A stretch of 64,000 bases of DNA from Nannocystis bainbridge (GCF_028368995.1 NZ_JAQNDL010000003.1:2496001-2560000), one strand, 5' to 3'; counted from the stretch's first letter, positions 102 to 58,853 are shown. Made by a program: numbers and translations. Notes: generated by a model not told the origin, from the sequence alone.

Positions 102-180
102 GCATGTCCTCGAGGACATTTCTTTAAAGAAATGTACTCGAGAACATTTCCCTACGAACATGTCCTCTCAGACTTGTCCA
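102..180. repeat. Phased 14-bp tandem repeat array (about 6 units)
   Basis: gcatgtcctcgagg/acatttctttaaag/aaatgtactcgaga/acatttccctacga/acatgtcctctcag/acttgtcca. Confidence 0.8.
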
Positions 181-386
181 CGGACGGGCGCTCCGTGGTG
201 AGCATCGATCTCTCGCCCGATCTACCCGCTGCACACACGTCAGTCTGCAGGAAAGGCGCGACCAGGCTCCGATCCCGGTCGACGCGGACCGCCGCGATCA
301 CCAGGCGGGTCGAGCTGCGGCCGCTCGCGCATGCACCACGTGGCCCGGAGCACGACCTCGCAGCGGCCGCTGCCTGGCCACTCGCC

Positions 387-2081
387 TCACGCCCCGGCCT
401 GGCTGGCGTAGAGCTCGCGGGCCTCGGCCCGCTGCAGCTCGCCGCCGATCGTGCGCGGCAGGGCGCCCACCGGCACCTGGACCAGCGCGGCGACGCGGAG
501 CCCGAGCGCTGCCTGGATCCGTCGGCGCAGCGTCGCGGCCATGGTGTTGAACACCGCCCGGTCGACCGCGCGGCCCTCTGCCACCACCACCAGCTCGTCG
601 CTGAGCTTGCCCGGCCGCGCCAGCGCGACCACCTGGCCCGCGCAGATCCCCGGCACCCGCGCTGCCTCGCGCTCGATCGGCTGCGGATCGTAGCTACAGC
701 CCTGGACCACGATCACGTCGATCGCCTCCGCTCCGGTTTGCTCGCCGCGGGCGAACGCCACCTCGCCTGCCCCGTCCTCGCCGCGGAAGCGCCACACGAT
801 CACCCCGCCCGCCGGCGCCAGCGTCGAGCCGGGCTCCGCGTGCGCCGGTGACAGCGGCGTGCGCCGCTCCCTGCCGATGCTCCACGGCCCGCTCGGCGCG
901 CGCACGACCGGCCTCGCGCTCCCGGACATGTCCTCTTCGCCATGTCTCATCGACCAGCCGATCGGCTGCGCCGGCGACACCGTGGGACGCGACATGTCCT
1001 TTACGCCAGGTCCGCGGCTCGCCGCCGTTGGCGTCGAAACGCCCGTCTCGCCGGGCCCGCGGCTCGTCGTCGTCGGCGCCGACATGTCCTTTACGCCATG
1101 TCCCATCGCACCGCCGCTCGAGGCCCCCGCGCTGGCCGTCTCGGCCGCGGTCGCCGACATGCTCGCCTCCACCGCCACCGTCGCCGCACGGACCTCCGCC
1201 TGCGCCGTGTCCTCCGCTCGGGGCTCCGTCCCCTCGCCCGTCGCCGCCAGCTTGCGAACCACCGGCACCTCGTCGTGGGCCAGCACGCGCACCCCTGGGA
1301 GTTGGGCCCGCTTGTCGGCCCGCAGGAGCGTCGGCCGCTCCGCGATCGTGATCGTCGCTCCGAGCTGATCGACGAGCCGCAGCCAGCGGCCCGCGTCGAG
1401 GCGATCCGGGCGGGCGATCACGAACGGCAAACGCGCTCGCAGCGGCGCCAGCACCCCGGAGACGAGGCCGCGATCGAGGCCCACCCACGACAGCAGCTTG
1501 TCGCTCGCCTGCGTCTCGCCGAGCGCCGCCTCGGCCGCTTCGGCCAGCGTCGCGTGGGTGTAGCTGGTCGCCTGTGCCGCTCCCGTGCGGTCCATCGTGC
1601 ACGCGACCAGCGCCAGATCGTCATCTTTAAAACTCGCCGGGTTGGCCAGGAACACCGGGCCCAGCGGGTGCTCGCCGAGATCGTCGACCGCCACCTCGCG
1701 CAGCTCTCCGAGCAGCGGCATCGACCCTCGCACGGACGGCCGGATCACCCGCTGCGCCTCGCTCGCGCGCATCACCTCCATCACACCGGCGCGCCACACC
1801 TCCGCCGTCTGGCCGTGCGGATCGGTGAGCACCACCGGCACCAGCCCTGCGCGCAGCGCCCCCAGCGTCGCGACGACCAGGTACTCCGGGTCGGGTGCAG
1901 CGATCGCCACTCGCTCGCCGCGTCGGACCCCGCGCGACACCAGCCGGGCCGCGAAGCCCTCGACCGCCACCACCAGCTCACCGTAGCTGCGGGTCCGCGT
2001 CGCCCCGTCGTCGCCGACGATCACGAGGCCGGGGAGAGCGCACCCGCGGAGAGCCACGAGCGAATGAACCAGAGTCGCCAC
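387..2081 (-). CDS. Degenerate fatty acyl-AMP ligase-like (AMP-binding) protein with a low-complexity insertion
   Basis: N-terminal SYGEL..V..FAARL...GVRRGERVAI and C-terminal DVIVVQG.SYDPQPIE / LPRTIGGELQR follow the FAAL pattern. The P-loop is degenerate (ACTMDRTG instead of YTSGSTG) and the centre is Ala/Thr/Pro-rich. Confidence 0.65.
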   Translation of the reverse strand: MATLVHSLVALRGCALPGLVIVGDDGATRTRSYGELVVAVEGFAARLVSRGVRRGERVAIAAPDPEYLVVATLGALRAGLVPVVLTDPHGQTAEVWRAGVMEVMRASEAQRVIRPSVRGSMPLLGELREVAVDDLGEHPLGPVFLANPASFKDDDLALVACTMDRTGAAQATSYTHATLAEAAEAALGETQASDKLLSWVGLDRGLVSGVLAPLRARLPFVIARPDRLDAGRWLRLVDQLGATITIAERPTLLRADKRAQLPGVRVLAHDEVPVVRKLAATGEGTEPRAEDTAQAEVRAATVAVEASMSATAAETASAGASSGGAMGHGVKDMSAPTTTSRGPGETGVSTPTAASRGPGVKDMSRPTVSPAQPIGWSMRHGEEDMSGSARPVVRAPSGPWSIGRERRTPLSPAHAEPGSTLAPAGGVIVWRFRGEDGAGEVAFARGEQTGAEAIDVIVVQGCSYDPQPIEREAARVPGICAGQVVALARPGKLSDELVVVAEGRAVDRAVFNTMAATLRRRIQAALGLRVAALVQVPVGALPRTIGGELQRAEARELYASQAGA

Positions 2082-2727
2082 GCTTCATTGTGCGACATGA
2101 CGGGCCGACTCGGATGATCGCCGCGCATACAACCATCACAATCGTCATGGAGCCGCGGCTCCTCGGTCCCCCGACGAAGAACTGCGCCCCCCGCCGATCC
2201 GGGTGATCGCCTCGAGGTCGCACTGCCGTGGACACAGGCGGCGGAACCGCCGCCCGACGACGACGACGACGACCTCGACGCCTCGACCCGCGCTGCCGTG
2301 GCTGCACCTGCACCTCTCGCCCGACGCCGATCACCGCGACGACCGGCTCGCCCGATCGCTGCGCCGGCGCCGCGAAATCAGCCGTGGGATCGGCACGATC
2401 GCTGAGCCTGCCCCCTATGGCGTCGTGTATGCCGCTCTGCGAGCCCGCGGCGTCGACCTCGTCGAAGGCCCTGATCAGCACTTGCAGGCGATGGAGTTCG
2501 ATCGGCTCGCGGCGCATCGGGTTCACACCGACCAGCCTAGACATCACCGATCTCGCTGAGGTTCGAGGCCGCGGCGACCTGCCTCGCGCAAGCATATCGA
2601 CTGGCGCCACCGCGTCGCCGGCCCGATCGCCGCGCCGCGCAGCCGGTTTCACTCCCGCCACCCGGCGATCGTGCGGACGCTCGCTGCTCTCCGACAACCC
2701 CGTCACCGGCACCTGCTGTCCGCCGAG

Positions 2728-2903
2728 ACATGCCCTTGAGGACATCCTCTTGAGAACCGCGGCGCCGGCGCATCCGGGCGAGAATCACTTTTGAAAGATC
2801 GCCTCCCTGGGGTCCGGGGTCGTCACTCCTTGCGACCGCAGGGTCCAGCGACCTCACACCTATCCCTTAACACATGTCTTCTTGAACATGTCTCATGGAA
2901 CAT
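2728..2903. repeat. 14-bp repeat family, two short arrays (2728-2755 and 2858-2903)
   Basis: acatgcccttgagg/acatcctcttgaga and acctatcccttaac/acatgtcttcttga/acatgtctcatgga/acat. Confidence 0.7.
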
Positions 2904-3714
2904 CGACGTCATCCAGGTAAAACTGCCCCGACTTCACCAGCACCGCTCGTCCCGTGATCAGCACCCGGTCGCCGGCCAGCTCGCACGTCAGCTCGCCGCT
3001 GCGGCGCGACACCTGGCGGGCCCGCAGCCGCTGCTTGCCCAGGCGGTCCGCCCACAGCGGCGTCAGCGTGCAGTGGGCCGAGCCCGTCACCGGGTCTTCG
3101 GGGATCCCCTGCGCCGGCGCGAAGCAGCGCGACACGAAGTCGACATCCGCGTCGGGCTCGCCGCCGGGCGCCGTGGCGATCACCGCGAACACATCGGGCA
3201 GGCGCAGCATCGCCGCGAAGTCGGGGCGCAGCGCCCGGACCTCCGCCGCGCTGGTGAACACCGCCACCAGGTCGCGCGCCACCAGCACCTCCGCGGGCCG
3301 GCGGCCGAGCGCCGCGAATAAACCTTCGGACATGTCCCCGGGGACAGCCGGACGCGACAGCAGGTCGAGCGTGAACGCCTCGCCGGTGCGGGTCACCGTG
3401 AGCGGGCCTGACATCGTCCAGAAGCGCAGCCGGTCCGGCGCGTCCGCGCGCACGTGCGAGTGGACGAACGCCGCGGCCAGGGTCGCATGACCACACAGAT
3501 CGACCTCGACCTCCGGGGTGAACCAGCGCAGGTCGAAGTCGTCCGTGCCGGGGCGCGGCGCGTAGAAGGCCGTCTCGGACAGCGCGTTCTCGGCCGCGAT
3601 CTGCTGCAGCAGCGCATCGGGCAGCCACGCCTGCAGGGGGCACACGGCGGCAGGGTTGCCGGCGAAGCGGCGGCTCGTGAACGCGTCGACGTGGAAGCAG
3701 GCGATCTCGGTCAC
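2893..3714 (-). CDS. PhzF family epimerase/isomerase
   Basis: Motifs VDAFT...GNPAAV, SETAF, LRWFTPEVEVDLCGHATLA, EDPVTGSAH. GTG start inferred. Confidence 0.92.
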   Translation of the reverse strand: MTEIACFHVDAFTSRRFAGNPAAVCPLQAWLPDALLQQIAAENALSETAFYAPRPGTDDFDLRWFTPEVEVDLCGHATLAAAFVHSHVRADAPDRLRFWTMSGPLTVTRTGEAFTLDLLSRPAVPGDMSEGLFAALGRRPAEVLVARDLVAVFTSAAEVRALRPDFAAMLRLPDVFAVIATAPGGEPDADVDFVSRCFAPAQGIPEDPVTGSAHCTLTPLWADRLGKQRLRARQVSRRSGELTCELAGDRVLITGRAVLVKSGQFYLDDVDVP

Positions 3715-3777
3715 GCGGGTCAATCTACCGGAGCGCTGACGGACCGTCATACTGAGGAAGTGGAATCCCGTTCGCCC

Positions 3778-4047
3778 ATGCGGATCGCCGTCGAGTCGCT
3801 CGCCGAGGCTCGCGCCGCCGCCGGCAGCGGCGACCTCGAGCGCGGCCTCGACCTCGTCGACGACGGCCTCGCGGCTCTCGGGCCGCACTACCAGCGCTCC
3901 GGGCTCATCGACGACTCGGGGCTCAAGCTGACCCTCGCCGCGGTGCGTCGGCGCCAGGGCGACGCCGCCGGCGCGTTCGCGGCGATGGAGCGCGTGCTCG
4001 AGGATCGCATCGCCACCTACGAGGGCCGCAGCGGGGACGTCTCCTGA
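3778..4047 (+). CDS. Small helical hypothetical protein
   Basis: MRIAVESLAEARAAA...; GC3-biased codons; fills the gap divergent from the PhzF gene. Confidence 0.5.
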   Translation: MRIAVESLAEARAAAGSGDLERGLDLVDDGLAALGPHYQRSGLIDDSGLKLTLAAVRRRQGDAAGAFAAMERVLEDRIATYEGRSGDVS

Positions 4048-4412: not shown

Positions 4413-4431
4413 GGCGACCTCGGCTCGCGCC

Positions 4432-5675: not shown

Positions 5676-5732
5676 GGTCTTTCCATCATGGTTGAAAGGA
5701 CATGTCCCGAAGGTAACCTCGGAGGTCGGCCC

Positions 5733-8075
5733 TCAGCTGGCCCCGCGGGTCGGCACCGCGCCGAGCGCCGCGAGCACGCGGTCCGGGGTGAGCGGGAGGT
5801 CGCGGACGGCCACGCCGAGCGCGTCATGGACGGCGCAGGCGATCGCGGCCGCGGTCGGGATCGTCGACGGCTCGCCGATGCCGATCGCCCCGGTGTTGTT
5901 GGCGCCGGTGTCGACCGGCGTGAACACCACGTCGATCTCGCGCGGCACGTCGCGCACGCCGGCGATCTTGTAGCTCTCGAGGTTGGGGTTCAGCATCACC
6001 CCGCGCACGCGGTCCATGATCCGCTGCTCGGTCAGCGCGTAGCTGGTGCCGAGGATCACCCCGCCCTGCACCTGCGAGCGGGCCGTCAGCGGGTTCATCA
6101 CCTTGCCGCAGTCGTGGATCGCCAGCACCCGCTCGACCGCGACCACGCCGGTCCAGGTGTCGACGCGGACCTCGGCGAACTGGACCCCGGCGATCTGGTA
6201 GCTGCTGCCGCCCATGAACTTGACCGGGTAGGCGCCGTAGGTGTCGGGCCGCGTGCCGGTGGCGACGACCGCCTCGCCCTCGATCTTCTTGCACAGCTCG
6301 GCCCACGCGATCGCCTTGGTGCCGGCGCGGACCTGGCCTTCGGACCAGGTCAACTCCTCCGGCTTGCGCCCGAGCTGCTTGGCCGCCAGCGCCGTCAGCT
6401 GGGTCTTGACCGCCTCGGCCGCGGCGCGGACCGCCGGGGTCACGCTGGCCGTGGTGACGCTGCCGCCGCTGCCGACCGACGGCCCGAGCTCGCTGTCGCC
6501 GAGGCGCACGCGGACCGCCTCGACCGGGCGCTGCAGCACCTCGGCGACCACCTGCGCGACCACGGTGGTGATGCCGCCGCCGATGTCCTGCAGGCCGTTC
6601 TTGACCTCGACGCTGCCGTCGCGGGCCACGCTGACGGTGGCGACGACCGCCTTGCCGCGGCCGAAGTCGCCCCAGATCGACGCGGCCACGCCGAAGCCGC
6701 GGCGCACCCGGGTCTGCCTGGTGCGCAGCGCCGCCGCCTGCTTGCGCCCGGCGTCCCAGCCGAACTGCTTGCGCCCGAGCTCGAACTGATGCCGCCGCAC
6801 CGGGTGCTCGTCGTGCTGCAGGCGCAGGTCGAGCGGGTCGAGCTTCAGCTTGGCCGCCAGCTCGTCGAGCGCCAGCTCGAGCGCGAACGCCCCCTGCGGG
6901 TGCCCCGGCGCGCGCATGGCCGTGGCCGGCCCGCCGTGGGTGAACACGTCGTGGCTCTCGACCAGGATGTTGGGGCAGCGCGAGTAGATGCCGAACGCGT
7001 TGCGCCCGACCCCCGCGCCGGTGCCGATGCCCGCGGTCCCGTGGGCCTGGACGTGGATCGCCGTCAGCTTGCCGTCGGCGCCGGCCCCGAGCTTGACGCG
7101 CTGGCGCGAGTCGGGGCGGTTGCCGGTGCACAGGTGCTCCTCCTTGCGATCGAGCAGCAGCCGCACCGGCGCGCCGGCCTTGCGCGCGAGCTCGCCGGCG
7201 ATGAAGCCCATGCGCGAGCCCGGGGCCGAGGCGCCGAACTTGGCCCCGAAGCCGCCGCCGAGGAAATCGGTGTGCACGCGCACGTCGGCCGGCTTGAGCT
7301 CGAACACCTCGGCGAACTCGTCGCGCACGCTGAAGATGCCCTGCGTCGAGCACCACACCGTGGCCTGCTTGGGCCCGTCCCACTGCACGACGATGCTGTG
7401 GGTCTCGAGCGCCGAGTGCGTGTGCACCTGCGTGGTGTACGTCGCCTCGTGCGAGACCTTGGCCATGCGCAGGCCCTTGTGCGCGTCGCCCTTCTTCATC
7501 GACGGCGTGGTGCGGACGTTGCCGCGCTGGCCCGCGCTGCCGCCCGCGCCCGGCTCGTCGCCCTCGGTGCTGCGCTCCTGGACCTTGCCGCGGTGGACCT
7601 GCGGCGCGCCGTCCTGCATCGCCGCCGCGGTGTCGACCACGAACGGCTCCGGCTTGTACGTGACAGCGATCGCCCGCAGCGCCGCCTCGGCCTGCTCCGG
7701 CGTCTTCGCGGCCACGGCGGCGACGTCCTGACCGGCGAAGATCACCCGCTCGCCCGGCTTGACCAGAGCCAGCGCCGCGCTCACCCCGGGCTGCGCCCGC
7801 GCCGGCTCGACGTCGATCGCCTCGACCACCGCGCACGGGTGCGGGCTGCGCAGCACCGCCGCCCACAGCGCGTTGGTCGGCACGATGTCGTGGGTGTACT
7901 TGGCCGCGCCCGAGACCTTGAGCGGCGCCTCGACCCGCGGGTGCGGCTTGCCGATCACCTGCAGCTCGCTGCGTGCGTCCCACGGCTTCGGCTCGCCCGC
8001 CGGCAGCTGCACCTCGATGTCGCGCAGCTGGTCGGCGAACCCGACCCTGAGCGTTACCTTGCGATCGTCCGGCAC
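5733..8075 (-). CDS. Xanthine dehydrogenase family molybdopterin-binding subunit (PaoC/YagR-like)
   Basis: KVSGAAKY, GGGFGAK, AMRAPG, QDIGGG, GSGGS, IHDCG.VMNP, GIGEP. GTG start inferred. Confidence 0.93.
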   Translation of the reverse strand: MPDDRKVTLRVGFADQLRDIEVQLPAGEPKPWDARSELQVIGKPHPRVEAPLKVSGAAKYTHDIVPTNALWAAVLRSPHPCAVVEAIDVEPARAQPGVSAALALVKPGERVIFAGQDVAAVAAKTPEQAEAALRAIAVTYKPEPFVVDTAAAMQDGAPQVHRGKVQERSTEGDEPGAGGSAGQRGNVRTTPSMKKGDAHKGLRMAKVSHEATYTTQVHTHSALETHSIVVQWDGPKQATVWCSTQGIFSVRDEFAEVFELKPADVRVHTDFLGGGFGAKFGASAPGSRMGFIAGELARKAGAPVRLLLDRKEEHLCTGNRPDSRQRVKLGAGADGKLTAIHVQAHGTAGIGTGAGVGRNAFGIYSRCPNILVESHDVFTHGGPATAMRAPGHPQGAFALELALDELAAKLKLDPLDLRLQHDEHPVRRHQFELGRKQFGWDAGRKQAAALRTRQTRVRRGFGVAASIWGDFGRGKAVVATVSVARDGSVEVKNGLQDIGGGITTVVAQVVAEVLQRPVEAVRVRLGDSELGPSVGSGGSVTTASVTPAVRAAAEAVKTQLTALAAKQLGRKPEELTWSEGQVRAGTKAIAWAELCKKIEGEAVVATGTRPDTYGAYPVKFMGGSSYQIAGVQFAEVRVDTWTGVVAVERVLAIHDCGKVMNPLTARSQVQGGVILGTSYALTEQRIMDRVRGVMLNPNLESYKIAGVRDVPREIDVVFTPVDTGANNTGAIGIGEPSTIPTAAAIACAVHDALGVAVRDLPLTPDRVLAALGAVPTRGAS

Positions 8076-8760: not shown

Positions 8761-9408
8761 ATGCAGAACGACCCCTCGCTGCAACCTCTGAAGCCGCTGC
8801 TCGATGCCCTGGCGTTCACCACCGAGTTCGGCCGTGAGCTCGGCGAGCTGGCGCCGACCGAGGCGCTGCGGGCCGGCCTGTCTCTCGGGACATCCACGCC
8901 GCTGCCGCCGGCCGACGACCGCGTCCGCGCCGCCGTGCGTGACCTGCTGCGCAAGGCCGGCTTCAAGCCGACCGGGCGCTCCAAACCAGCCTCGGAGTAC
9001 CTGCTCAAGGCGGCCGGCGACGGCTCGCTCGGCAGCATCAACGCCGCGGTCGACGCCTGCAACGTCGCCTCGCTCCACAGCGGCCTGCCGATCAGCGTCG
9101 TCGACCTCGACCGCGCGACCGCCCCGCTGGCGCTCGGCGTGCCGGCGCCGGGCACCAGCTACGTGTTCAACGCCAGCGGCCAGGTCATCGACATCGGCGG
9201 CCTGGTGTCGCTGCTCGACGCCGAGGGCCCGTGCGCCGGCCCGGTCAAGGACTCGCAGCGGACCAAGACCCACCCCGGCACCCGCCGCACCCTCTCGATC
9301 GTGTGGGGCACCACCCAGCTGCCCGGCCTCGCCGCCGCCACCGCCGCGTTCTACCGCGAGCTGCTGCACGGCCTCGGCGCGACCACCGAGACGGTCACGT
9401 TCGAGTAG
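8761..9408 (+). CDS. B3/B4 (PheT editing-like) domain protein
   Basis: GFKPTGRSKPASEYL, INAAVDACNVASL.SGLPISVVDLD. Confidence 0.85.
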   Translation: MQNDPSLQPLKPLLDALAFTTEFGRELGELAPTEALRAGLSLGTSTPLPPADDRVRAAVRDLLRKAGFKPTGRSKPASEYLLKAAGDGSLGSINAAVDACNVASLHSGLPISVVDLDRATAPLALGVPAPGTSYVFNASGQVIDIGGLVSLLDAEGPCAGPVKDSQRTKTHPGTRRTLSIVWGTTQLPGLAAATAAFYRELLHGLGATTETVTFE

Positions 9409-9417: not shown

Positions 9418-9473
9418 ACATGTCCTGTAGAGCATGCCCTCACGGACATGCTCTTGAGAGCATGCCCCTCAGG
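9418..9473. repeat. 14-bp repeat array (4 units) between convergent genes
   Basis: acatgtcctgtaga/gcatgccctcacgg/acatgctcttgaga/gcatgccctcaggg. Confidence 0.85.
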
Positions 9474-11118
9474 GCACCTGGATCCCCTGCACCCCGGCGA
9501 GCACCGTCAGCTCGGCCTCGGTCTCGACCCCGGAAGTCTCGGCCTCGATGGTGTCGACGATGCGGAAGCGAGCCCGCATCTCGGTGCGAGTGAGGTCGAT
9601 CGTGACGTAGCCGCGCGAGTGGGCGTTGAAGTATTTAATTTGGGGGATCGTGCTGACGAGCTGCTCGATGGTCTCGGGCGGGACGTCGGTCTCCGAGCTC
9701 GAGGTGATCGAGGTGGTGACGATCTCGACCGCGACCACCGGCGCGTTGGTGTCGCCCGCGGTGGCGTTGAGGTCGGCCATGCCGCCGACGTGCAGGTCGC
9801 CGGCCAGGATCACCACGTTGCCCAGCTCCTCGGCGGCGAGGAAATCGAGCATGCGCTGGCGCGCCTTCGGGTAGCCGTCCCACTGGTCCCAGTTGATGAG
9901 CAGCCCGCTGAAGTCGACCTTTGAAAACACGATCTGCTGGGCGATGAGCTTCCAGATCGCCGGCGACGCCACCAGCCCCGCGGTCAACCACGCCTCCTGC
10001 TCCGGCCCGAGCATGTCGCCGTCCTCGGTCTCGAGCTCGCCGCAGTCCTCGCCCGGGTCGTCCATGCAAAGCTGGTCGGTGCGGTACTGGCGGGTGTCGA
10101 GCAGGAACAGCTCGGCCAGGTCGCCCCATGCGAAGCTGCGGTAGATCGTCAGCCCCTCCGGCGTCGGCGGGGCCACGCGGATCGGCATGTGCTCGTAGAA
10201 GGCCTGGTAGGCGGCGGTCCTGCGGGCCAGGAATTCGGGATCGTCGACCGCCGAGATGTCGGCCACGTAGTTGTTGTCGACCTCGTGGTCGTCCCAGATC
10301 ACCGCCCACGGGAACCGGTGGTGCGCCGCCTGCAGCTGGGTGTCGCCGCGGTACAGCGCGTAGCGATTGCGATAGTCGAGCAGCGTGCGGCACTCCTCGC
10401 TCATGTGCGAGCGCACCGGGCCGCTGTCGCCGTTCTCGTAGATGTAGTCGCCGAGGAACAGCACCAGGTCGAGCTCCTCGGCGGCCAGGTGAGCGTAGGC
10501 GGTGTAGTAACCGGTGGTGAACCGCTGGCAGCTTGCCGAGGCCAGGCGCAGCCGCTCGGGCGCGCTGTCCGGGGCCGGCAGGGTGCGCGTGCGGCCGACC
10601 GGGCTGGTGAATTCGCCGACGTGGAAGCGATAGAAGTACCAGCGGTCGGGCTCCAGGCCGGACGCGTCGACGTGCAACGAGTGGGCGAAGGTCGGGTCGG
10701 CGATCGCCTCGCCGCTGGCGACGATGTCGGCGAACGCGTCGTCGGTGGCGACCTCCCATGCGACCGCGAACGCGACTTCGGGCATGCCGCCGCCAGTCCG
10801 CGGATCGGGCGCGAGGCGGGTCCAGAGGATCACGCGATCGGCGAGCGGATCTCCCGACGCGACCCCGAGCGTGAACGGCGGCCCCGGCAGCGCCGGCTCG
10901 CCGGTGGTGCCGGTCGTCGTCGGCGCGCTCGTCGTCGGCTCGCCCGCAGTGGTGCTGCCGCCGGTGGTCGAGCTGCTGTGCCCGCCGGTGCCCTCGGTGC
11001 CCCCGGCGACCCCGCCGCACGCGCTCGCCGAGGCCGCGGCGACCACCTGCCACAGGAATTCACGGCGCGTCGGCGCGGTGCGAGGTCGCGGGCGGGGCGG
11101 GCGCGGCGGAGAGCTCAT
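9469..11118 (-). CDS. phoD: Alkaline phosphatase D, Tat-exported (lipo)protein
   Basis: TRREFL Tat motif, FTLGVASGDP..DRVILWTR, GDYIYE, WDDHEV.NN, LDTRQYR, WDGY, GDLH. Confidence 0.93.
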   Translation of the reverse strand: MSSPPRPPRPRPRTAPTRREFLWQVVAAASASACGGVAGGTEGTGGHSSSTTGGSTTAGEPTTSAPTTTGTTGEPALPGPPFTLGVASGDPLADRVILWTRLAPDPRTGGGMPEVAFAVAWEVATDDAFADIVASGEAIADPTFAHSLHVDASGLEPDRWYFYRFHVGEFTSPVGRTRTLPAPDSAPERLRLASASCQRFTTGYYTAYAHLAAEELDLVLFLGDYIYENGDSGPVRSHMSEECRTLLDYRNRYALYRGDTQLQAAHHRFPWAVIWDDHEVDNNYVADISAVDDPEFLARRTAAYQAFYEHMPIRVAPPTPEGLTIYRSFAWGDLAELFLLDTRQYRTDQLCMDDPGEDCGELETEDGDMLGPEQEAWLTAGLVASPAIWKLIAQQIVFSKVDFSGLLINWDQWDGYPKARQRMLDFLAAEELGNVVILAGDLHVGGMADLNATAGDTNAPVVAVEIVTTSITSSSETDVPPETIEQLVSTIPQIKYFNAHSRGYVTIDLTRTEMRARFRIVDTIEAETSGVETEAELTVLAGVQGIQVP

Positions 11119-13084: not shown

Positions 13085-13209
13085 CGCGCGCTCCCGCCAG
13101 CGATCACCTAGGGGCGCGCGCGTGAGGTGTGCTTCATGATGTCCCAAGAGACATATCATGACAATCGCCGGCCCTGCGGCCGCGGTGATTCTGCGATTAC
13201 CATGATGGT

Positions 13210-14670: not shown

Positions 14671-15837
14671 ATGCGTCACCGTGCGACCCTCAGTTCACCT
14701 GTCCCTTCGACCAGATTCTCAGTGCGCGAGCGAGACCTCCGCGGCGAGCCGGTCGACCTCGACGCCACGCCGTCGGCGGTGCGCGTCGAGCTGCTCGGCG
14801 GAGCGCGCACGTTCGGCGTCACCGTGGTCCCGGCCGAGGCCGAGCCGGCCGCGGCGACGCTGACGGGCGCCCACCGGGCCGCCGCGCTGCGCGACCTCGA
14901 CGCCGCGCCCGGGACCCCGGAGCTGGCGCTGCTCCTCTATGTGGCGCTGCAGCGGGCGCGGATCTGGCGGCGCACGGCGGTGGTCAGCGCGGAGCCGTCG
15001 CTGGCGGCGGCGCCGATGCAGCTGTCGGCGCTGGCGCTGCGCGGGCTGCGAGCGGCGCCGCTCGACGAGGCCATGCACCGCCTGTTCGCCGCCTGCGACG
15101 ACGACGGGCGCGCGCTGTCGACGGGTCGCTTCGGCGCCGAGGCGACCGCCTGCCTGTCGCGCCACGCCGAGAGCTTCGCCGAGAACGCCTGGTGCCGGGC
15201 CGTGCACGCCGGCCGCCTCGCGCGCGAGCAGTACGTCGCCACCCTCGCCAACACCCATCAGTACGTCCGCTACACCCCGCGCCTGCTGGCCCGCGCGATC
15301 TCGGTGTGCGACGACGAACCGCTGCGCGACCACTTCACCCGCCACTTCCGCGGCGAACAGAAGCACGACCGCCTCATCGAGGCCGACCTCCGCTACCTCG
15401 AGGCCGACGTCGAATTCGTGCTGCGCGCGATGGTCCCGTGGGGCCCGACGCTCGCGTTCATGAGCGTGCAAGAGAGCATGGTCGCGTTCCACCAGGACCT
15501 CACCTGCTTCCTCGCCGCCCCGTTCGTCGCCGAGGGCCTGGCCGCTCGCGTCGGCCCGCTCGTCCTCGACGACCTCGCCGGCAACATCCGCCGCTGGGGC
15601 TACCGCGAGCCCGCCCGCGCGACCCGCTTCCTCGTCAGCCACGCGCGCGAGGACGGCGGCGACGATGGCCACTGGAGCGCCACGCTCGCCGTGCTCGCCC
15701 GTCAGCTGCGCGACGACACCACCCAGCAACGCTTCCTCGCCGCTCTTCACCTGGCCGCCGACGCCTTTACCGCCAGCTATGACGCCTATGTCGAATATCT
15801 CACCCTCTTCACCCCACCCCTCCTCGCTGACCCTTGA
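14671..15837 (+). CDS. Heme-oxygenase-like (TenA/PqqC/CADD fold) putative diiron redox enzyme with N-terminal extension
   Basis: Helical C-terminal domain: Y...L..THQYVRYTP.LL, HFRGEQKHD..IEADL, VAEG, SHAREDG...GH metal-ligand pattern. Confidence 0.7.
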   Translation: MRHRATLSSPVPSTRFSVRERDLRGEPVDLDATPSAVRVELLGGARTFGVTVVPAEAEPAAATLTGAHRAAALRDLDAAPGTPELALLLYVALQRARIWRRTAVVSAEPSLAAAPMQLSALALRGLRAAPLDEAMHRLFAACDDDGRALSTGRFGAEATACLSRHAESFAENAWCRAVHAGRLAREQYVATLANTHQYVRYTPRLLARAISVCDDEPLRDHFTRHFRGEQKHDRLIEADLRYLEADVEFVLRAMVPWGPTLAFMSVQESMVAFHQDLTCFLAAPFVAEGLAARVGPLVLDDLAGNIRRWGYREPARATRFLVSHAREDGGDDGHWSATLAVLARQLRDDTTQQRFLAALHLAADAFTASYDAYVEYLTLFTPPLLADP

Positions 15838-16441: not shown

Positions 16442-16660
16442 ACGCCTGCGCCGCGCTGCGAGCAGCCCCTCGCAGCGCGGCGCACACAAAGATCGGCGAG
16501 ATGACTCTCGCAGGCCGACGCTCGCCGCAGAGCGACGGAAGCTTCCGCAGGCGGCGGGATGCCTGTCGCAGGGAGGCGAAAGGACGCCTCCCGAAGAGCG
16601 ACGCGCGCCGCTCTCGAGGCAACAGCCCCGCGGGGCCAACAGAGTCTACTGACTCTCACG

Positions 16661-16758
16661 ACATGTCCTTTACAACATGTCCTTTACAACATGTCCTTTA
16701 CAACATGCCCTTTATAACATGCCCGTTCGGACATGCCCCATGCAGCATGTCCGAACGG
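16661..16758. repeat. 14-bp repeat array (7 units, first 3 identical)
   Basis: acatgtcctttaca x3/acatgccctttata/acatgcccgttcgg/acatgccccatgca/gcatgtccgaacgg. Confidence 0.92.
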
Positions 16759-16795
16759 TCACGCGCGACGCCACGCCGGCCCGGCCTCCGCGGCC

Positions 16796-19725: not shown

Positions 19726-19848
19726 CGGGGCCGCGTTTTTTCTCGAGACACCTGAGCGCCTGATTCTCGGCGCTCGGTGATTGTCGCCTCGAGTGATTCT
19801 TCGAAGTACTCGCCCACGTTCGTCTCGAAGGGCGCGCTCTGCTCGAGC

Positions 19849-20010
19849 TCTCGAAGTATGCGAGGGTCTCCTCGCTCTGGGGAGCTCGATGTCTCGAAGT
19901 GCGAGGGTCTCCTCGCCCTGGAGAGCTCGAGGTTTCGAAATGCGCGGGTCAGCTCGCCCTGCGAAGCCCGAGGTCTCGAAGTGCGAGGGTCAGCTCGCCC
20001 TGGAGAGCTA
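19849..20010. repeat. 41-bp intergenic tandem repeat (4 copies)
   Basis: Unit about tctcgaagtgcgagggtctcctcgccctggagagctcgagg, starting at 19849, 19892, 19933 and 19974; no spacers. Confidence 0.85.
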
Positions 20011-22603: not shown

Positions 22604-22897
22604 TCACCGCAGCACGATGAAGCTGAGCGGCATCTCCGAGTCGACGGCTTCCCAGTCCACGTCGATCGCTGCCACCCGGGCCGAGGGCGGGCCTTTGCGG
22701 CACCACTCGATCAGCGCTTCCACCCTGGCGCGGGTGCCCTGGGCGCGCAGCTCGACGCAGCCGTTGGGCAGGTTGCGGACCCACCCGCGCAGGCCGAGCG
22801 CCTGGGCCCGGGCTTGCGCGCTGGCGCGGTAGTACACGCCCTGGACGCGCCCGTCGATGCACACGAGCGCCTGGACCACTTCGAGCTCCTGTCCCAT
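22604..22897 (-). CDS. acyP: Acylphosphatase
   Basis: GRVQGVYYR, GWVRNLPNG.VE, KGPPSARV. Confidence 0.93.
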   Translation of the reverse strand: MGQELEVVQALVCIDGRVQGVYYRASAQARAQALGLRGWVRNLPNGCVELRAQGTRARVEALIEWCRKGPPSARVAAIDVDWEAVDSEMPLSFIVLR

Positions 22898-22956
22898 CGG
22901 CCCTGTCCTCGGTAACCTGTGCGATCGGCCATATCCCGGGGAACATGTCCCCGGGA
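22887..22956. repeat. 14-bp repeat array (5 degenerate units)
   Basis: tcctgtcccatcgg/ccctgtcctcggta/acctgtgcgatcgg/ccatatcccgggga/acatgtccccggga. Confidence 0.7.
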
Positions 22957-22967
22957 CCAGCCGAATC

Positions 22968-23798
22968 CTAGTCTTCCAGCGCCCCGCCGGCGATCCACGC
23001 CTCGATGAGCGCCAGCTTCGCGTCGTCCATCAGGCCCATCGGCGGCGGCATCAGCGTGCCCGCCCCGCCCTCGTCCTCGAAGCCGCCTGCCAGCTTGAGG
23101 TACAGGTAGCTCGCGGCCGGGTCGCTCGGCTCGACCAGGTCGAGGGCGACCGACGGCGACTTGACGTCGACCAGCGCCGCGTACGAGTCGCCCATCGGCA
23201 GGCTGAGGTTGCCGTTGGCCGCGCTCGCCGCGGAGAAGTGGCACGAGCAGCTGGCGTCGATGATCGCCTGCACGTTGGCGAACGTCGGCTCGGCTGGTTC
23301 GCCGGTGGTGTCGGTCCCGCCGGTGTCGGTGTCGGTGTCTACGCCGCCGGTGGTCGCCGGCCCGCCGCCCTCGAACTCCGCGCCCGCGATCCACGAGAGG
23401 ATCACCTGGTTGTTGGGGTTCAGGAAGTCGTTGTCGGCCGGCATGCGCGGCACGGTGCGCGTGAGGCCGAGGCTCGACAGCAGCACGTCGGGCAGCATCA
23501 CGATCGCCAGGTACGAGTTCACGGTGTCGCCGAGGGTCACCAGCGGCACCCCGTTGATCTCGCCGGTGAGGATGCCGTCGATCTCGTCGCCGGCCAGGAT
23601 CGGCAGCGTCGCCCCGGGCGAGTGACAGCCGGACTTGCCGCAGCTGGCCTCGAGCGCCTCACGCACGGCCGGCGGCACGCCGCCGCCGCCGCTGCCGCCG
23701 CTGCCGCCGGTCTCGATCGCCTCGAGCTGGTTGCAGCCCGCGAGCAACGTCGTCGTCGCCAGGGCGAGGGACACGGACTTGAATGTCTTCCGGGACAT
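22968..23798 (-). CDS. Lipoprotein with two atypical cytochrome c-like domains
   Basis: Lipobox LAGC; SCGKSGCH...SYL...RMP...SWIAGA and SCSCH...VEPSDPAASYLY.KL...MPP...AWIAGGA. Confidence 0.8.
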   Translation of the reverse strand: MSRKTFKSVSLALATTTLLAGCNQLEAIETGGSGGSGGGGVPPAVREALEASCGKSGCHSPGATLPILAGDEIDGILTGEINGVPLVTLGDTVNSYLAIVMLPDVLLSSLGLTRTVPRMPADNDFLNPNNQVILSWIAGAEFEGGGPATTGGVDTDTDTGGTDTTGEPAEPTFANVQAIIDASCSCHFSAASAANGNLSLPMGDSYAALVDVKSPSVALDLVEPSDPAASYLYLKLAGGFEDEGGAGTLMPPPMGLMDDAKLALIEAWIAGGALED

Positions 23799-26719: not shown

Positions 26720-26819
26720 CGACACCGACCTGCTTCGAGAGACATGCTCCAACGAGCATGCTCTCCAGGACAGGTTCGATCGAACATGCTCGATCGGGCA
26801 TGTTCGAGAGGGCATGCCG
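26714..26819. repeat. 14-bp repeat array (about 8 units) between convergent genes
   Basis: acctgacgacaccg/acctgcttcgagag/acatgctccaacga/gcatgctctccagg/acaggttcgatcga/acatgctcgatcgg/gcatgttcgagagg/gcatgccg. Confidence 0.88.
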
Positions 26820-30004: not shown

Positions 30005-30334
30005 GCGGGTCACGTGTGAGACGAGATACAGGAAGGAAGGGCAAGAAAAAAGCCCCGGACCTGGCGCCGCCAGGTCCACCGGAGCCTACCTCTTTAATAG
30101 AAGCCTCACGGCGGCGCCAGCGGGACGGGATGCGACGCACGGGGGCGTCGAGCGCGGTCTGGCGGTCCGAGCGCGAGTTCAGGTCCAGGACGGGAGCATT
30201 GCGCCTCTGGGGTGGAGGAGCAAGATCCCGACGCGCGGTTCTGGTCGTGCGATCTCGGCGCGCCGAGATCGTTGCTCGTCGCCCCTGGCGATCTTACGCG
30301 CGGGCGCGCGACGCGGCCGCGGCGCCCGAGGGCT

Positions 30335-34519: not shown

Positions 34520-34622
34520 CCTGTCCTCCGGGCCAGGTGGAAGTCACCTGGCCCTCGGGACAGTCTGTCCGCCGACCGCGGCGCCCCCGATGTCCCGGCG
34601 GCGCCGCTTCGCGCGTCCGGCC

Positions 34623-37191: not shown

Positions 37192-37309
37192 ACATGTCCT
37201 GAAGGACAGGACATGTCCTGCGAATCCGCAGCGCGCCGCCGACCTGTCCCGCGCCGCAGCGCCGACGTAACCGATCGAACTACATGTCCGCAAAGACAGG
37301 TCCATCCGC
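37192..37309. repeat. 14-bp repeat family units in a divergent intergenic region
   Basis: acatgtcctgaagg/acagg acatgtcc and acatgtccgcaaag/acaggtccatccgc; includes the perfect palindrome tgtcctgaaggaca arms. Confidence 0.65.
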
Positions 37310-42393: not shown

Positions 42394-43134
42394 ATGCACA
42401 GCCGTCACTTGATGCTCGAGAGCCCCGCCATGGGGCGCAAGGTTCACCTGTGGTGTTATGGCCATTTCGGCCCGCCCGTCATCGTCTTCCCCTCGGCCGC
42501 CGGCTTCGCCCACGAGTGGGATCGCCACGGCATGTTCGAGGTCCTCGGCCCGCTCGTGCGCGCCGGCAAGGTCAAGTTCTACTGCCCCGAGAGCAACGTC
42601 TCCCAGGTGTGGACTGACAAGGAGAGCTCGATCGCCGCGCGCATGGAGAAGCACCGCGCCTACGAGTCCTTCATCCTCGACACCCTCGTGCCGTTCATCC
42701 GCGAGGACTGCAACTGGCCGACCGCGCCGATGACCGCCGTCGGCTGCAGCCTCGGCGGCACCTACGCCGCCCTGTTCGCGCTCAAGTACCCCGAGACCTT
42801 CCGCCAGGTGCTGTGCATGAGCGGCCGCTACCTGACCACCGAGCTGACCGGCAAGCACAACGACGCCGAGCTCTACTTCAACAACCCGCTCGCCTTCGTC
42901 CCCGGCCTGCGCGGCGAGCACCTCGAGCGCCTGCGCCGCAACACCCACCTCACCCTCGTGTGCGGCCGCGGGGCCTACGAGGAGGGCTGCATCGAGGAGA
43001 CCATCGCCCTCGGCCAGCTGCTGCGCGAGAAGGACATCCCCAGCGTCACCGACATCTGGGGCCGCGAGTCGCGCCACGAATGGGACTGGTGGCAGCGCCA
43101 GGTCGCCGTCCACCTGCCGCGCCTGCTCGGCTGA
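42394..43134 (+). CDS. Putative esterase (alpha/beta fold)
   Basis: YGHFG.PVIVFP, GCSLGG nucleophile elbow, HEWDWW. Confidence 0.85.
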   Translation: MHSRHLMLESPAMGRKVHLWCYGHFGPPVIVFPSAAGFAHEWDRHGMFEVLGPLVRAGKVKFYCPESNVSQVWTDKESSIAARMEKHRAYESFILDTLVPFIREDCNWPTAPMTAVGCSLGGTYAALFALKYPETFRQVLCMSGRYLTTELTGKHNDAELYFNNPLAFVPGLRGEHLERLRRNTHLTLVCGRGAYEEGCIEETIALGQLLREKDIPSVTDIWGRESRHEWDWWQRQVAVHLPRLLG

Positions 43135-43204
43135 GCCTGATCCTTCGGGCATGTCCCATCGGACATGCTCCTTCGGACCTGTCCTTTCGCACCTGCTCCT
43201 CGGG
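43135..43204. repeat. 14-bp repeat array (5 units) filling the intergenic gap
   Basis: gcctgatccttcgg/gcatgtcccatcgg/acatgctccttcgg/acctgtcctttcgc/acctgctcctcggg. Confidence 0.85.
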
Positions 43205-45136: not shown

Positions 45137-45631
45137 ATGAGCAACCGACTGTTCGTAGGTAACCTGTCCTTCCAGACCACCGAGGAGGACCTCCAGCAAG
45201 TTTTCGCAGATTTCGGTGAGATCGCCGAGATCCGCCTCGTCCTCGACCGTGAGACCGGTCGTTCGCGTGGCTTCGCCTTCGTGGCGATGGCCGACGACGA
45301 GGCTGCCAAGCGCGCCACCGAAAGCCTCAACGGCCAGATGCTCGACGGCCGCCCGCTCCGCGTGAACGAGGCCGAAGAGCGCCGCGATCGCCCGGGTGGC
45401 GGCGGCGGCGGCGGTGGCGGCGGTAGCCGTCCGTTCGGCGGCGGCGGCGGTGGTGGTAGTCGCGGCGGCGGCGGCGGCTTCGGCGGCGGCGGTGGTGGCT
45501 TCGGCGGCGGCGGCGGCGGTGGCGGTCGCGGTGGCTTCGGCGGCGGCGGCGGTGGCGGTCGTGGCGGCGGCGGTGGCCGTGGCGGCGACCGTGGCGGTCG
45601 CGGCGGTGGCGGCGGCGGCGGTCGCTGGTAG
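45137..45631 (+). CDS. RRM RNA-binding protein with Gly/RGG-rich tail
   Basis: LFVGNL (RNP2), RGFAFV (RNP1), GRPLRVNEA, long Gly-rich tail. Confidence 0.95.
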   Translation: MSNRLFVGNLSFQTTEEDLQQVFADFGEIAEIRLVLDRETGRSRGFAFVAMADDEAAKRATESLNGQMLDGRPLRVNEAEERRDRPGGGGGGGGGGSRPFGGGGGGGSRGGGGGFGGGGGGFGGGGGGGGRGGFGGGGGGGRGGGGGRGGDRGGRGGGGGGGRW

Positions 45632-48128: not shown

Positions 48129-50810
<2,682 letters not shown>

Positions 50811-53873: not shown

Positions 53874-54008
53874 GCACGCCCATGATCGCCAGCTCCAGCC
53901 CCCTCTTCAAGCCCGGCACCGTGACGATCATCACCGCCGCCGCGGCCGGGCTCGCTCCCATACCTGACCTTTGCGACAGCCTCGTCGGCCGGCTTCGCCA
54001 CCTGTCCC

Positions 54009-54539
54009 TTGCGACATCCGGCGCCGCCCCCCGCCTCGTGCGGGCGGTGCTATAGTCGCGCCCGTTTGCCGCCTCTCGGCCGCACCAGCCTCCTCGGCAC
54101 GCTGCTCGCCTACGCCGGCCTCACCCTCGGCGTCTGCATCCTCTCGCGCGCGTCGGCCTGCGCGGGCGCGCCCCAGCCCGCCAGCCACGGCACCGCCGCC
54201 GAGGAGACCGCCCTGTGGGCCTTCTTCGGACCTGTCGCTCCGGGCATGTCGCTCGGGACATGGTCCATCGTACATGTCACTCCGCCGCGCGGCGGCTCGG
54301 TGATCTTCACCCTGCGCGCCGCCGGCCTCCCCGACCTCGAGCTCGCCGTCACCCGCCTCGTGCCCGACGGCCCGCGCCCGCTGGCCCGCACCGCTCACCT
54401 GGCGCTGTACCTCGCCCGACCTGACCCTTCGGACAGCCCTACCCCATCCGCGACCCTCGCCGCCGCCACCGCCCTCGCCGAGGCCTTCACCGCCCGCGAG
54501 GCCGCCATGTCCCCGCCGCTCGCGCCCCTCACCCCCTGA
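54009..54539 (+). CDS. Hypothetical protein
   Basis: Open frame with a hydrophobic segment and GC3 bias; true start uncertain. Confidence 0.45.
   Translation: MRHPAPPPASCGRCYSRARLPPLGRTSLLGTLLAYAGLTLGVCILSRASACAGAPQPASHGTAAEETALWAFFGPVAPGMSLGTWSIVHVTPPRGGSVIFTLRAAGLPDLELAVTRLVPDGPRPLARTAHLALYLARPDPSDSPTPSATLAAATALAEAFTAREAAMSPPLAPLTP
54230..54285. repeat. 14-bp repeat array (4 units) inside a putative CDS
   Basis: acctgtcgctccgg/gcatgtcgctcggg/acatggtccatcgt/acatgtcactccgc. Confidence 0.75.
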
Positions 54540-54770
54540 ACGAGCGGCCAGCTCGCTCTTACAACCTGTCTCTTCGGACATCCTATCCGGCACCTCAGCC
54601 AGCCCCTCCGCCTCTCTCTTCCACATCCTCGACTGGCCCTCTCCGCTCACCGAACCACGCCCTGTCCGCTCGACCAGCATCGCCCCTCTCGTCCACATCC
54701 TCGACCATCGCTCACCGCTCCTCGAACCACCGCCTGACCCATCGGCCAGCCTCGCCCGCCCTCCCCGCGC

Positions 54771-56426: not shown

Positions 56427-56566
56427 TTGTGCGTAGCCCGCACTCGCATTCGTGACTCGGCGCGAATCGTCGGTCCACGCATGCAGAAGGGGCGGCTTCG
56501 CGCAGCTTTTTATTTGACTGCGGGCGCGCCCTCGCGCTTTGATGCGCACTGGAGTGTCTTTTTCTC

Positions 56567-57430: not shown

Positions 57431-57476
57431 TCTGTCTTCTCCTTCGCCGCCCGCTCCTTCACGAGGATCTTCCGTC

Positions 57477-58727
57477 ATGCTGACCCGCCTCTGTCTCCTC
57501 TCGCTCGGCGCCGCCCTGCTCGCCGCTCCGACCGCCGCTGCCGCCCCCGCCGCTCCCGACGTCCGCCTCTCCGCGCCTGTGGCCGGCGACATCGCCGGCG
57601 ACCGCCTCGCCACTGAGGTCCCCGCCGTGTCCGCCGCCATCGATCGCGCGCCCGTGGCGATGAGCTGGCCGATCGACCAGGCCGCCGACGACCTCCAGAG
57701 CCGACCTGCGGCCCACCGCGCCGAGAGCCGCGTCTGGTGGCGCCGCTTCGAAGTCGCCGCCCTCGCCAAGGGCGTCTCGCTGCCGATCAGCGAGCCCGGC
57801 GCGCTGCTCAAGCTCAGCCCGCAGGACGGCGCCAGCATCGGACTCGACGCCCTCGAGCTCGTCGATGCGCAGGGCCGCGTGCTCGCTGGCGCCGACGCCC
57901 TCAAGCCGCTCGTCGACCCCAGCCACCTGCGCAGCGCCGGCGCCCCCTTCGCGCCCGGCACCGCCATGTTCACCCTCCGCCCCGACCTCGGCGTCGGCGC
58001 CTTCGTGCTGCGCGCCCGCGTGCGCTCCGCCGTGCTCGTGCACGTGCTCGAGCGCGACGCCGGTGCTTACCTGTCCCTCGAGCCAGACGCCGACCTCGCG
58101 CTGGTCGGCGGGCGGCTGCAGGTGCGCGCGCACCTGCGCGACGGCGAGGCTGTCCTCAAGGCCAGCTCGATCAAGGGCGAGCTCATCGCCCCCGACGGCG
58201 AGATCACCCGCTTCGACCTCGCCCGCGCCGCCGACGGCAGCTATCGCGCCGAGCTCGCCGCCCCGCGTCGCGCCGCCGCCCCGGGCGCCCTGCACACGCT
58301 CCAGGTCCACGCCGAGGGCGTCACCGCGCGCGGCGTCCCGGTCCGGCGCACGGTCACCAATGCGGTCTCCATCGCCGCGCCCACCGCCCGCTACACCGGC
58401 GGCGTGACGGTCGAGGACAGCGGCGACGGACGTCTGCGCATTCGCCTCCAGGTCGAAGTCGGCGCCGCCAGCCGCTTCGGCGCCGCCGCGGTCCTCCACG
58501 GCACCAATCGCGGCGGCAAGCTCCAGCCGCTCGGCGTCGGTCAGGCCGCGGATTGGCTCGAGCCCGGCCCCGGTGAGCTCGTGCTCGAATTCGACGAGGC
58601 CACGCTCAAGGCCGCCGGCCTGCGCGGCCCCTACGAGCTCCGCGACCTCCGCCTCGTCGATCAGGGCCGCCTCGCCACCGTCCATCGTCAGGCCCGCGCG
58701 CTGGCGCTCCCGACCGCGCGACGCTGA
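57477..58727 (+). CDS. Secreted Ig-like protein (DUF4785-like), likely partner of the upstream hydrolase
   Basis: Signal peptide, ESR.WW, G..L....PGA..K.SP, GPYELRDLRLVDQ. Confidence 0.7.
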   Translation: MLTRLCLLSLGAALLAAPTAAAAPAAPDVRLSAPVAGDIAGDRLATEVPAVSAAIDRAPVAMSWPIDQAADDLQSRPAAHRAESRVWWRRFEVAALAKGVSLPISEPGALLKLSPQDGASIGLDALELVDAQGRVLAGADALKPLVDPSHLRSAGAPFAPGTAMFTLRPDLGVGAFVLRARVRSAVLVHVLERDAGAYLSLEPDADLALVGGRLQVRAHLRDGEAVLKASSIKGELIAPDGEITRFDLARAADGSYRAELAAPRRAAAPGALHTLQVHAEGVTARGVPVRRTVTNAVSIAAPTARYTGGVTVEDSGDGRLRIRLQVEVGAASRFGAAAVLHGTNRGGKLQPLGVGQAADWLEPGPGELVLEFDEATLKAAGLRGPYELRDLRLVDQGRLATVHRQARALALPTARR

Positions 58728-58853
58728 TCTGTCCCAAGGGACATCTCACCGGACCTCCTGTGTGGTCCGGCGCTCGCCGAGTCGCCGGACCGCACGACGA
58801 CTCGGCCGCTCGGACAGTTGCGCCCGTCAGCGCGATCGGTAAGCTGGGCGGCT

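Follow-up and report, generated by a model that had tools for sequence, protein, structure and literature searches.

Tandem operators that are read by cooperative dimers, with the stack of dimers winding round the DNA, are known from the met-boxes of MetJ, the omega heptads, the centromeres of ParR and TubR, and BldC. The units of these arrays follow each other head to tail in exact register and vary in copy number, and the same is true of a family of sites identified in the current analysis in Nannocystis bainbridge (GCF_028368995.1). The known arrays are single loci, serving as operators or as plasmid centromeres, whereas the Nannocystis family is chromosome-wide and comprises thousands of arrays. 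Its unit is a 14-bp box, TGYCC-N4-GGRCA. The stretch considered here, referred to as the window, comprises 64,000 nucleotides (NZ_JAQNDL010000003.1:2496001-2560000), which correspond to G000:C2:2496001-2560000 in our genome set; G000 is the Nannocystis genome of 11.05 Mb in five contigs, with 71.5% GC and a completeness of 90.5%. The 14-bp element is real, genome-wide, abundant and selected. From its sequence pattern the boxes are predicted to be double-stranded DNA docking sites for a protein of two-fold symmetry, a prediction to which we give about an even chance.

The systems nearest in kind are the repetitive extragenic palindromes (REP) and the bacterial interspersed mosaic elements (BIME), the latter of which are reported to bind gyrase and IHF. 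Like the Nannocystis boxes, they comprise thousands of short palindromic units in a fixed register, lie behind genes and between convergent genes, and are specific to a clade; the extragenic and downstream preference of REP is also seen in the boxes. In the cited part of the source, a REP is an imperfect palindrome of 20-40 bp that forms a stem-loop, has GTAG or CGTC at one end and is associated with RAYT (PMC3733652). The Nannocystis box differs in its length of 14 bp (20 bp with flanks), in a logo that ends in TG...CA, in its free spacers and in the location of about a third of the copies inside genes. The first-pass annotation had proposed an undescribed REP-like element as one possibility, and this membership fails, since neither a GTAG nor a CGTC tag is present, no hairpin is selected, and no gene is found in G000 for RAYT, a Y1 transposase of the IS200/IS605 type (PF01797 has 0 matches; the control was positive in 6 of 14 genomes). 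The TRIT motif of Mycobacterium, which reportedly lies behind genes of a GC-rich genome and is read as a terminator hairpin, is also unlike the boxes, in which pairing is not selected.

In sequence, the nearest system is the operator of CviR and CsuR in Chromobacterium, given in the cited part of the source as the 16-bp palindrome CTGNCC-N4-GGNCAG, with CTGNCCNNNNGGNCAG as the ideal site of CviR and CTGTCCGATAGGACAG as that of CsuR (PMC12114271). This palindrome, with the CsuR site CTGTCCGATAGGACAG listed there, equals a Nannocystis box that stands alone and bears the flanks most often seen, C on the left and G on the right, and the candidate reader described below carries the same GerE-type domain. 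The placement is not common to the two: the CviR sites are few and lie in promoters, whereas the approximately 12,700 Nannocystis boxes are tiled and lie at gene ends. CviR has an autoinducer-binding domain, in place of which the Nannocystis candidate has a small N-terminal domain. Apart from this likeness, no prior description of the motif was found in the literature searched, and to that extent the earlier remark, that it was not recognised from any described system, holds.

Dispersed palindromes of 12-16 bp that are read by chromosome-organising dimers are also the basis of ParB-parS, Noc-NBS, SlmA-SBS and MatP-matS. These systems have tens of sites in particular chromosome regions, whereas each of the five contigs has boxes, at a density of 80-117 per 100 kb, and there is no extra ParB_N gene. 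The single ParB_N match of G000 is typical of the family: among the 59 genomes searched, 48 have one match, irrespective of the presence of boxes, while nine have 2-3 and two lack any. The earlier analogy with parS, matS and NBS is therefore not upheld, and a ParB-type reader has been rejected. CdbA of Myxococcus xanthus is described, in the cited part of the source, as a ribbon-helix-helix protein with hundreds of chromosomal sites, in each of which GC-rich sequence is directly repeated at a separation of 4 bp, and with little effect on transcription (PMC7156744). It is similar in being a small protein with sites both in genes and between them, and differs in having no palindrome; neither tiling nor a gene-end bias is reported in that part of the source. 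As the CdbA motif is a direct repeat, CdbA has been set aside as the reader.

The period of 14 bp is evident at the level of the whole genome. Exact TGTCC-N4-GGACA occurs 1,987 times in G000, and the same arms with spacers of 0-3 or 5-12 occur 0-16 times. A weight-matrix chain search identified 12,675 boxes at 7,205 loci, and chains of at least three units number 1,522 at period 14 and 3-35 at the control periods between 11 and 18. The CATG autocorrelation that the first-pass annotation had expected is present, with 3,736 pairs at 14 bp against about 70-300 at neighbouring distances, and its harmonics are found at 28 bp (2,073), 42 bp (1,586), 56 bp (751) and 70 bp (383). Within the window, 64 boxes of at least 10 bits have a spacer of 4 bp, compared with 3-17 for seven other spacers; CATG follows CATG at 14 bp 23 times, at 28 bp 11 times and at 42 and 56 bp 8 times each, and other distances mostly occur 0-4 times, with the exception of 27 bp (7 times). 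Among ten arrays that had been listed as strictly phased, eight are so and those at 34519-34563 and 37192-37309 are not, while all eight of the shorter sites listed are boxes with scores of 8.4-16 bits.

The element had been described both by an RCATGTCC core and by the dyad TGTCC-N4-GGACA. These are two views of one tile, in which CATG is the joint and not the unit. The ends of arrays carry the inner half-site alone, and stand-alone copies account for 1,026 of the 1,987 exact boxes against 150 of the 956 exact GGACATGTCC junctions; the unit is therefore TGYCC-N4-GGRCA, and CATG arises where two tiles meet at exact 14-bp tiling. The junction GGACATGTCC is, by coincidence, also a perfect half-site of animal p53. 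An unbiased logo obtained from 1,366 boxes, each flanked by two strong neighbours, reads T (.92), G (.94), Y, C (.70), C (.74), followed by four free positions enriched in A/T and then by the mirror image, with the spacers A/T-rich at the dyad centre. Isolated boxes (1,250 non-coding and 1,254 coding) show in addition A at -3, C at -2 and C or A at -1, mirrored on the right, the C at -1 being present in 53-68% and the G at +14 in 49-66%. The flanks AC[A/C] and [T/G]GT thus extend the site to a width of about 20 bp, which makes the tiles overlap.

The placement of the boxes of at least 10 bits has been analysed with genes from a crude codon-usage caller (8,231 genes, 84% coding) and with phase-matched patterns as controls. 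Convergent regions are the richest, with 9.35 boxes/kb (2,657 boxes; controls 48-91), followed by co-directional regions with 3.12 boxes/kb (2,942; controls 128-170), divergent regions with 1.07 boxes/kb (548; controls 64-86) and coding sequence with 0.446 boxes/kb (4,147; controls 448-479), the last still a roughly 9-fold excess. At least three boxes are present in 527 of the 1,514 convergent gene pairs, and convergent regions of 100-299 bp have at least one box in 73% and at least three in 53% of cases. Arrays of at least five boxes are distributed as 315 convergent, 165 co-directional and 9 divergent, with 46 in called genes. The earlier observation that most arrays start immediately behind a stop codon is borne out in the window and only partly genome-wide: in co-directional contexts 25% of the loci begin within 17 bp of the stop, with spikes at -3 and +2, and at both spikes the stop codon TGA sits within the half-site. 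Boxes are fewer in 50-kb bins of low GC (r = 0.60, 219 bins). A 200-kb stretch of another contig (G000:C1:1100000-1300000) has 4-11 boxes per 50 kb, where the mean is 46, together with a GC of 0.68-0.70 and a lower coding density, and is possibly acquired DNA.

The arrays have a preferred size. Spans of 1-7 units between convergent genes occur 505, 178, 123, 93, 196, 119 and 23 times respectively, with a mode at 5-6 and not a geometric decay, and the strict CATG runs show the same shoulder. A master-copy test revealed no position-specific spacers common to the arrays, which are therefore not copies of one mobile or master element. Between separate boxes no helical phasing is seen beyond multiples of 14.

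Comparison with five genomes of the same genus that are syntenic with the window shows that the sites are retained in place. In our tally, box-bearing intergenic regions have boxes in 67 of 76 comparisons and box-free regions in 6 of 76. The copy number per orthologous region shifts fast, as exemplified by the array at 16650..16761, with 8 boxes against 1, 6, 3, 3 and 0 in the congeners. The array at 26731-26814 can be aligned in six species by its phase and its CATG joints, with spacers and flanks that diverge, and among aligned non-coding boxes the identity is 0.95-0.98 for the TG/CA positions, 0.63 for the spacers and 0.77 for the flanks. At third codon positions of 25 coding boxes, a modest sample in which the relatives are not independent, 389 of 426 core positions are identical against 2,673 of 3,324 flanking positions. 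The boxes inside genes of the window are largely found at the same places in the congeners.

The 11 genomes of the genus Nannocystis (g1) contain 114-2,090 exact boxes per genome, and two sister genera, g2 and g4, contain 87-169 and 67-696; eleven other genera have 0-20, and a reversed-pattern control gives 0-10 per genome. Triple-CATG arrays number 1,005-1,670 in six large Nannocystis genomes, 2-62 in the five smaller ones and 0-4 in other genera. The ratio of a variant, TGTCT-N4-AGACA, to the main box is 0.62-0.74 in g2, compared with 0.085 in one genome of Nannocystis. The boxes of the sister genera, in a small sample, lie in mixed contexts, and the 16 proteins flanking them have no common function and include no regulator. 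Since the sister genera have single boxes almost without arrays, the site family is older than the genus, and the tiling was added in Nannocystis.

The change in copy number is also what would be seen of a self-propagating or neutral repeat, one that grows by in-register slippage or through a mobilising enzyme, survives where it is harmless without serving the host, and may still be bound by a protein. Four units of the array at 16650..16761 are identical (ACATGTCCTTTACA), and these identical neighbours (16661-16721) point to recent in-register tandem duplication; the identity of aligned spacers (0.63) is lower than that of third codon positions (0.80), as turnover of units would give, and both the REP-like placement and the scarcity in low-GC bins fit such a repeat. 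It accounts poorly for single boxes kept in 5 of 5 congeners, for core third codon positions that are more conserved than their flanks and for a size mode at 5-6 boxes in place of a geometric decay. Together with the lack of a RAYT gene and of position-specific spacers shared among arrays, these findings make a purely self-propagating or neutral repeat rather unlikely.

The symmetry of the box could be read either in double-stranded DNA or in a folded single strand. The arms show no covariation, with 553, 703 and 749 Watson-Crick pairs observed against 539, 691 and 748 expected, and the Watson-Crick ratios of double variants (1.08-1.18) equal those of shifted controls (0.96-1.21). Only 262 of the 1,366 unbiased boxes (19%) are pairable at all five positions, and arms that have been shuffled give 259 +/- 11. 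The spacers in co-directional contexts are strand-symmetric (TTCG 148 and CGAA 147; GAAA 69 and TTTC 75), and both arms are equally kept where transcription runs in one direction only. The absence of arm covariation and the strand symmetry of the spacers are therefore taken to mean that the constraint acts on double-stranded DNA, as it appears to do, and not on a hairpin.

Chains of hairpins in RNA or single-stranded DNA, which would work like REP or TRIT elements as intrinsic terminators or by stabilising 3' ends, are in view of these values improbable. Such chains would agree with the self-complementary consensus, with the position of the arrays behind stops and their abundance between convergent genes, with the long dyads of some arrays (for example 103-167) and with a slight excess of T-G over C-A on the sense strand (1,331 vs 1,141, summed over three pairs). 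The last of these would also be expected from transcription-linked deamination; in addition, the tetraloops show no strand preference, and most tRNA genes are without arrays.

A marker of self-DNA, either a DNA uptake sequence or a tag against foreign DNA, would explain thousands of clade-restricted copies with a shifted variant in g2, the presence of boxes in genes as well as between them and their scarcity in low-GC bins; it is very unlikely, as strict 14-bp tiling and a preferred stack size would have no role there, and a 28-kb mobile element has 15 boxes against 20 expected and is not depleted. Rho, which binds spaced YC patches, might load on untranslated RNA with one pyrimidine-rich patch per hexamer subunit at a spacing of about 14 nt, as the preferred size of 5-6 units, the position directly behind stops and the rarity behind tRNA genes would allow, but this is hardly credible when the sense strand has no C-over-G skew (spacer C 1.035, G 0.987), the arms are mirror-symmetric, conservation in co-directional contexts is as strong for the G-rich arm as for the C-rich one, and boxes within genes are conserved too.

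The docking of a dimeric protein on double-stranded DNA, which the first-pass annotation had proposed, is supported indirectly by the symmetric consensus, the lack of arm covariation, the strand-symmetric spacers, the identity of the isolated box with a CviR-type site and the presence of a candidate reader. The search for a reader covered RAYT, ParB_N, autoinducer-domain and GerE genes, and G000 has 11 GerE matches, which correspond to 10 genes. The candidate is a GerE protein of 179 residues (G000:C3:1036254-1036793), with a GerE domain of 43.4 bits (cut-off 23.5) and a small N-terminal domain of no Pfam family. Strong homologues are encoded in 10 of 11 genomes of g1, 5 of 5 of g2 and 7 of 7 of g4, the last with 2-3 copies, whereas the 40 genomes from the family's 11 other genera have none. 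In the rest of a sample of 401 genomes of the class, only three weak matches (38-47% identity) were obtained, and the genomes concerned (G099, G350 and G194) have 3, 3 and 1 boxes against control counts of 3, 1 and 0. These distant homologues without an excess of boxes neither help nor harm the candidate. Among the GerE genes tested, only the 179-residue protein matches the distribution of the boxes over g1, g2 and g4. Its identification as the reader is tentative, and we place it well short of an even chance.

Across 21 sequences of the three genera, 44 of 53 positions of the helix-turn-helix are invariant, against 7 of 113 in the N-terminal region. The model of the candidate, with a predicted local distance difference test (pLDDT) value of 74, consists of a small alpha/beta N-terminal domain and a four-helix GerE domain. 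The former would be a dimerisation domain of PAS-like topology, judging from the model. A full-length Foldseek search ranked EL222, VqmA, TraR and CviR weakly, and the helix-turn-helix superposes on the NarL-DNA structure 1je8 with 0.9 A over 54 residues. The homodimer model has a score of 0.55, compared with 0.00 for the best of three controls, and its interface is two-fold and lies in the N-terminal domain; the mark applied is reached by 20 of 30 solved one-chain pairs and by 1 of 23 single chains. The runs agree in at least 27% of the contacts, and the pLDDT of the partner is at least 60. The modelling thus supports a homodimer, though the pass may partly reflect likeness to solved dimers of the LuxR type.

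The candidate gene is convergent, with a gap of 232 bp, to the second of two genes for a type IIA topoisomerase B subunit (636 residues), and a gene for an extracytoplasmic function (ECF) sigma factor lies upstream. The order in C3:1031624-1037691 is a gene of 823 residues, the topoisomerase B subunit, the convergent candidate and the ECF sigma factor. Among 20 homologue loci, 11 retain both neighbours and 16 retain the sigma gene.

Several other proteins have been considered as the reader and rejected. A NarL-type response regulator, RR-A (C2:2447072-2447701), is encoded some 48 kb ahead of the window, with 3 boxes on the upstream side of its gene and an array of 5 on the downstream side. The gene arose by duplication, in Nannocystis only, of one that occurs throughout the family (73% identity); it is present in the six large genomes, with orthologues 86-93% identical in four large g1 genomes. 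RR-A has been set aside because orthologues from genera without boxes have the same recognition helix, because the loci of the sister copy have no strict box, because g2, g4 and the small g1 genomes bear boxes and lack RR-A, and because the gene is split in two pieces in genome G010. Of the remaining GerE genes, L078 is absent from g4 but has matches in g2, g10 and g15, homologues of L073 and L074 occur in genera that lack boxes, and L077 is patchy (g1 5/9, g2 3/4, g4 1/5, g15 2/5, g14 3/9, g10 1/10). A quorum-sensing LuxR protein was likewise rejected, as PF03472 is marginal in 2 of 10 g1 genomes and gives no match in the other 8, in g2 or in g4. G000 also encodes a protein of 432 residues with two GerE helix-turn-helix domains in tandem (G000:C2:1197176-1198474).

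On the reading of the boxes as docking sites, a helix-turn-helix dimer of the LuxR/GerE type would recognise AC[A/C]TGYCC-N4-GGRCA[T/G]GT. In Nannocystis such sites would have been duplicated in exact 14-bp register, so that adjacent dimers share the CA|TG junction and stand about 120 degrees apart round the helix, with three boxes making four turns. The resulting nucleoprotein stacks, preferably of 5-6 dimers (70-84 bp), would be retained where promoters are undisturbed, namely downstream of stop codons and most of all where two genes converge. They probably act as boundary elements, and two versions can be envisaged: a symmetric roadblock or insulator against read-through, or a landing site that steers a type IIA topoisomerase to where positive supercoils build up. 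In its boldest form, a small dimeric reader would polymerise on 5-6 tiled operators at more than 1,000 gene ends and recruit the second type IIA topoisomerase to relieve the positive supercoils and collisions that converging transcription produces. We regard such a chromosome-wide architectural code, built from an ordinary LuxR-type operator, as unlikely; if true, bacteria would have a protein-based analogue of insulator or terminator arrays for which no equivalent has been described.

A number of observations weigh against these proposals. About 3,700 boxes lie inside genes and are spread evenly along them, and the promoter-bearing divergent regions are the poorest intergenic class, although LuxR-type operators usually sit in promoters. 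A general role as terminator is at odds with the tRNA genes, only 12 of 102 of which have a box within 150 bp downstream (8 have one upstream). The candidate locus itself has no box in G000, not even in its 232-bp convergent gap, though 73% of such gaps have one, and boxes are present in only 3 of the 20 homologue loci. The codon score of the candidate is 0.66 bits/codon compared with 1.05 for the neighbouring topoisomerase genes, and so modest a value does not suggest a very abundant protein. One member of g1, G006 (84% complete), has 450 boxes, and no homologue was found in it. It may be that g1, g2 and g4 are one clade, which a single-gene tree does not resolve, and the co-distribution may in that case be a single event common to many clade-specific genes. 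The tiling is limited to Nannocystis though the helix-turn-helix is the same in the sister genera, and something else must therefore explain it. The GerE genes searched separately were those other than the response regulators L075 and L076 and the sigma-like L080.

To our knowledge, the limits of transcription units and the handling of converging transcription are poorly understood in large GC-rich genomes, and here a third of the convergent gene pairs carry operator-like stacks of at least three sites. If the reading of the stacks as protein-bound boundaries holds, a family of transcription-factor sites can grow into a genome-wide structural element. It would then form a protein-based parallel to REP and BIME and might provide portable symmetric boundary parts for myxobacterial producer strains.

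The first box locus of the window, at 91..174, has 5 called boxes over 6 unit positions between convergent genes; the initial box is weak and extends over a stop codon (97-99), and the array forms part of a longer dyad with the centre TTTAAA. Two tiled boxes of 14.8 and 13.7 bits are found at 2717..2744, and three at 2861..2902 overlap the 3' end of a minus-strand gene (2893-3888). Two further tiled boxes at 5689..5716 follow the minus-strand gene 5733-8075 at a distance of 17 bp from its stop and are kept in 4 of 5 congeners. The four tiled boxes at 9421..9476, situated 13 bp behind the stop of the gene 8761-9408, correspond to 3-6 boxes in 5 of 5 congeners. Single intergenic boxes at 13140..13153 (14.8 bits) and 14700..14713 are likewise present in 5 of 5 congeners. 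The array at 16650..16761, with 8 tiled boxes between convergent genes, is the longest of the window.

In the second half of this series, five tiled boxes of 6.9-11.3 bits at 22890..22959 are separated by 9 bp from the stop codon that ends the minus-strand gene 22968-23798, and the six tiled boxes at 26731..26814 lie between convergent genes, 12 bp behind a stop at 26719. At 34522..34562 two untiled boxes of the isolated type, each with ACCTG...CAGGT-like flanks, are 27 bp apart between convergent genes, 3 bp behind a stop. In a divergent intergenic region (37195..37298) three single boxes occur out of phase, with 16 bits at 37195, 8 bits at 37245 and 14.8 bits at 37285. Four tiled boxes at 43138..43193 lie 4 bp behind the stop of the gene 42412-43134, and a cluster at 54003..54676 comprises boxes at 54003, 54233-54274 (3 tiled), 54422, 54567 and 54663. 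A single box of 16 bits at 58730..58743 lies 3 bp behind a stop at 58727. About 25 boxes of at least 10 bits are inside genes between 929 and 58164, for example at 3333, 12064, 16067, 20741, 23784 and 25068.

The window also contains features of other kinds. A block of 26 plus-strand tRNA genes for many amino acids occupies 60665-63233 (C2:2556665-2559233) and is rearranged or displaced relative to the congeners. Two paralogous genes (37626-39944 and 48231-50810) have cysteine-rich repeats of 93-96 bp and 288 bp, and they cross-match each other as well as further copies in the congeners. Nested repeats of 9, 12, 18, 24 and 60 bp (GCCTTGGGC and similar) at 29690-29890, within the minus-strand gene 26960-30013, suggest a low-complexity tail rich in Lys and Ala. 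A 41-bp tandem repeat of 4.1 copies is present at 19841-20009, and a run of about 74 GGC triplets is found at 45398-45621.

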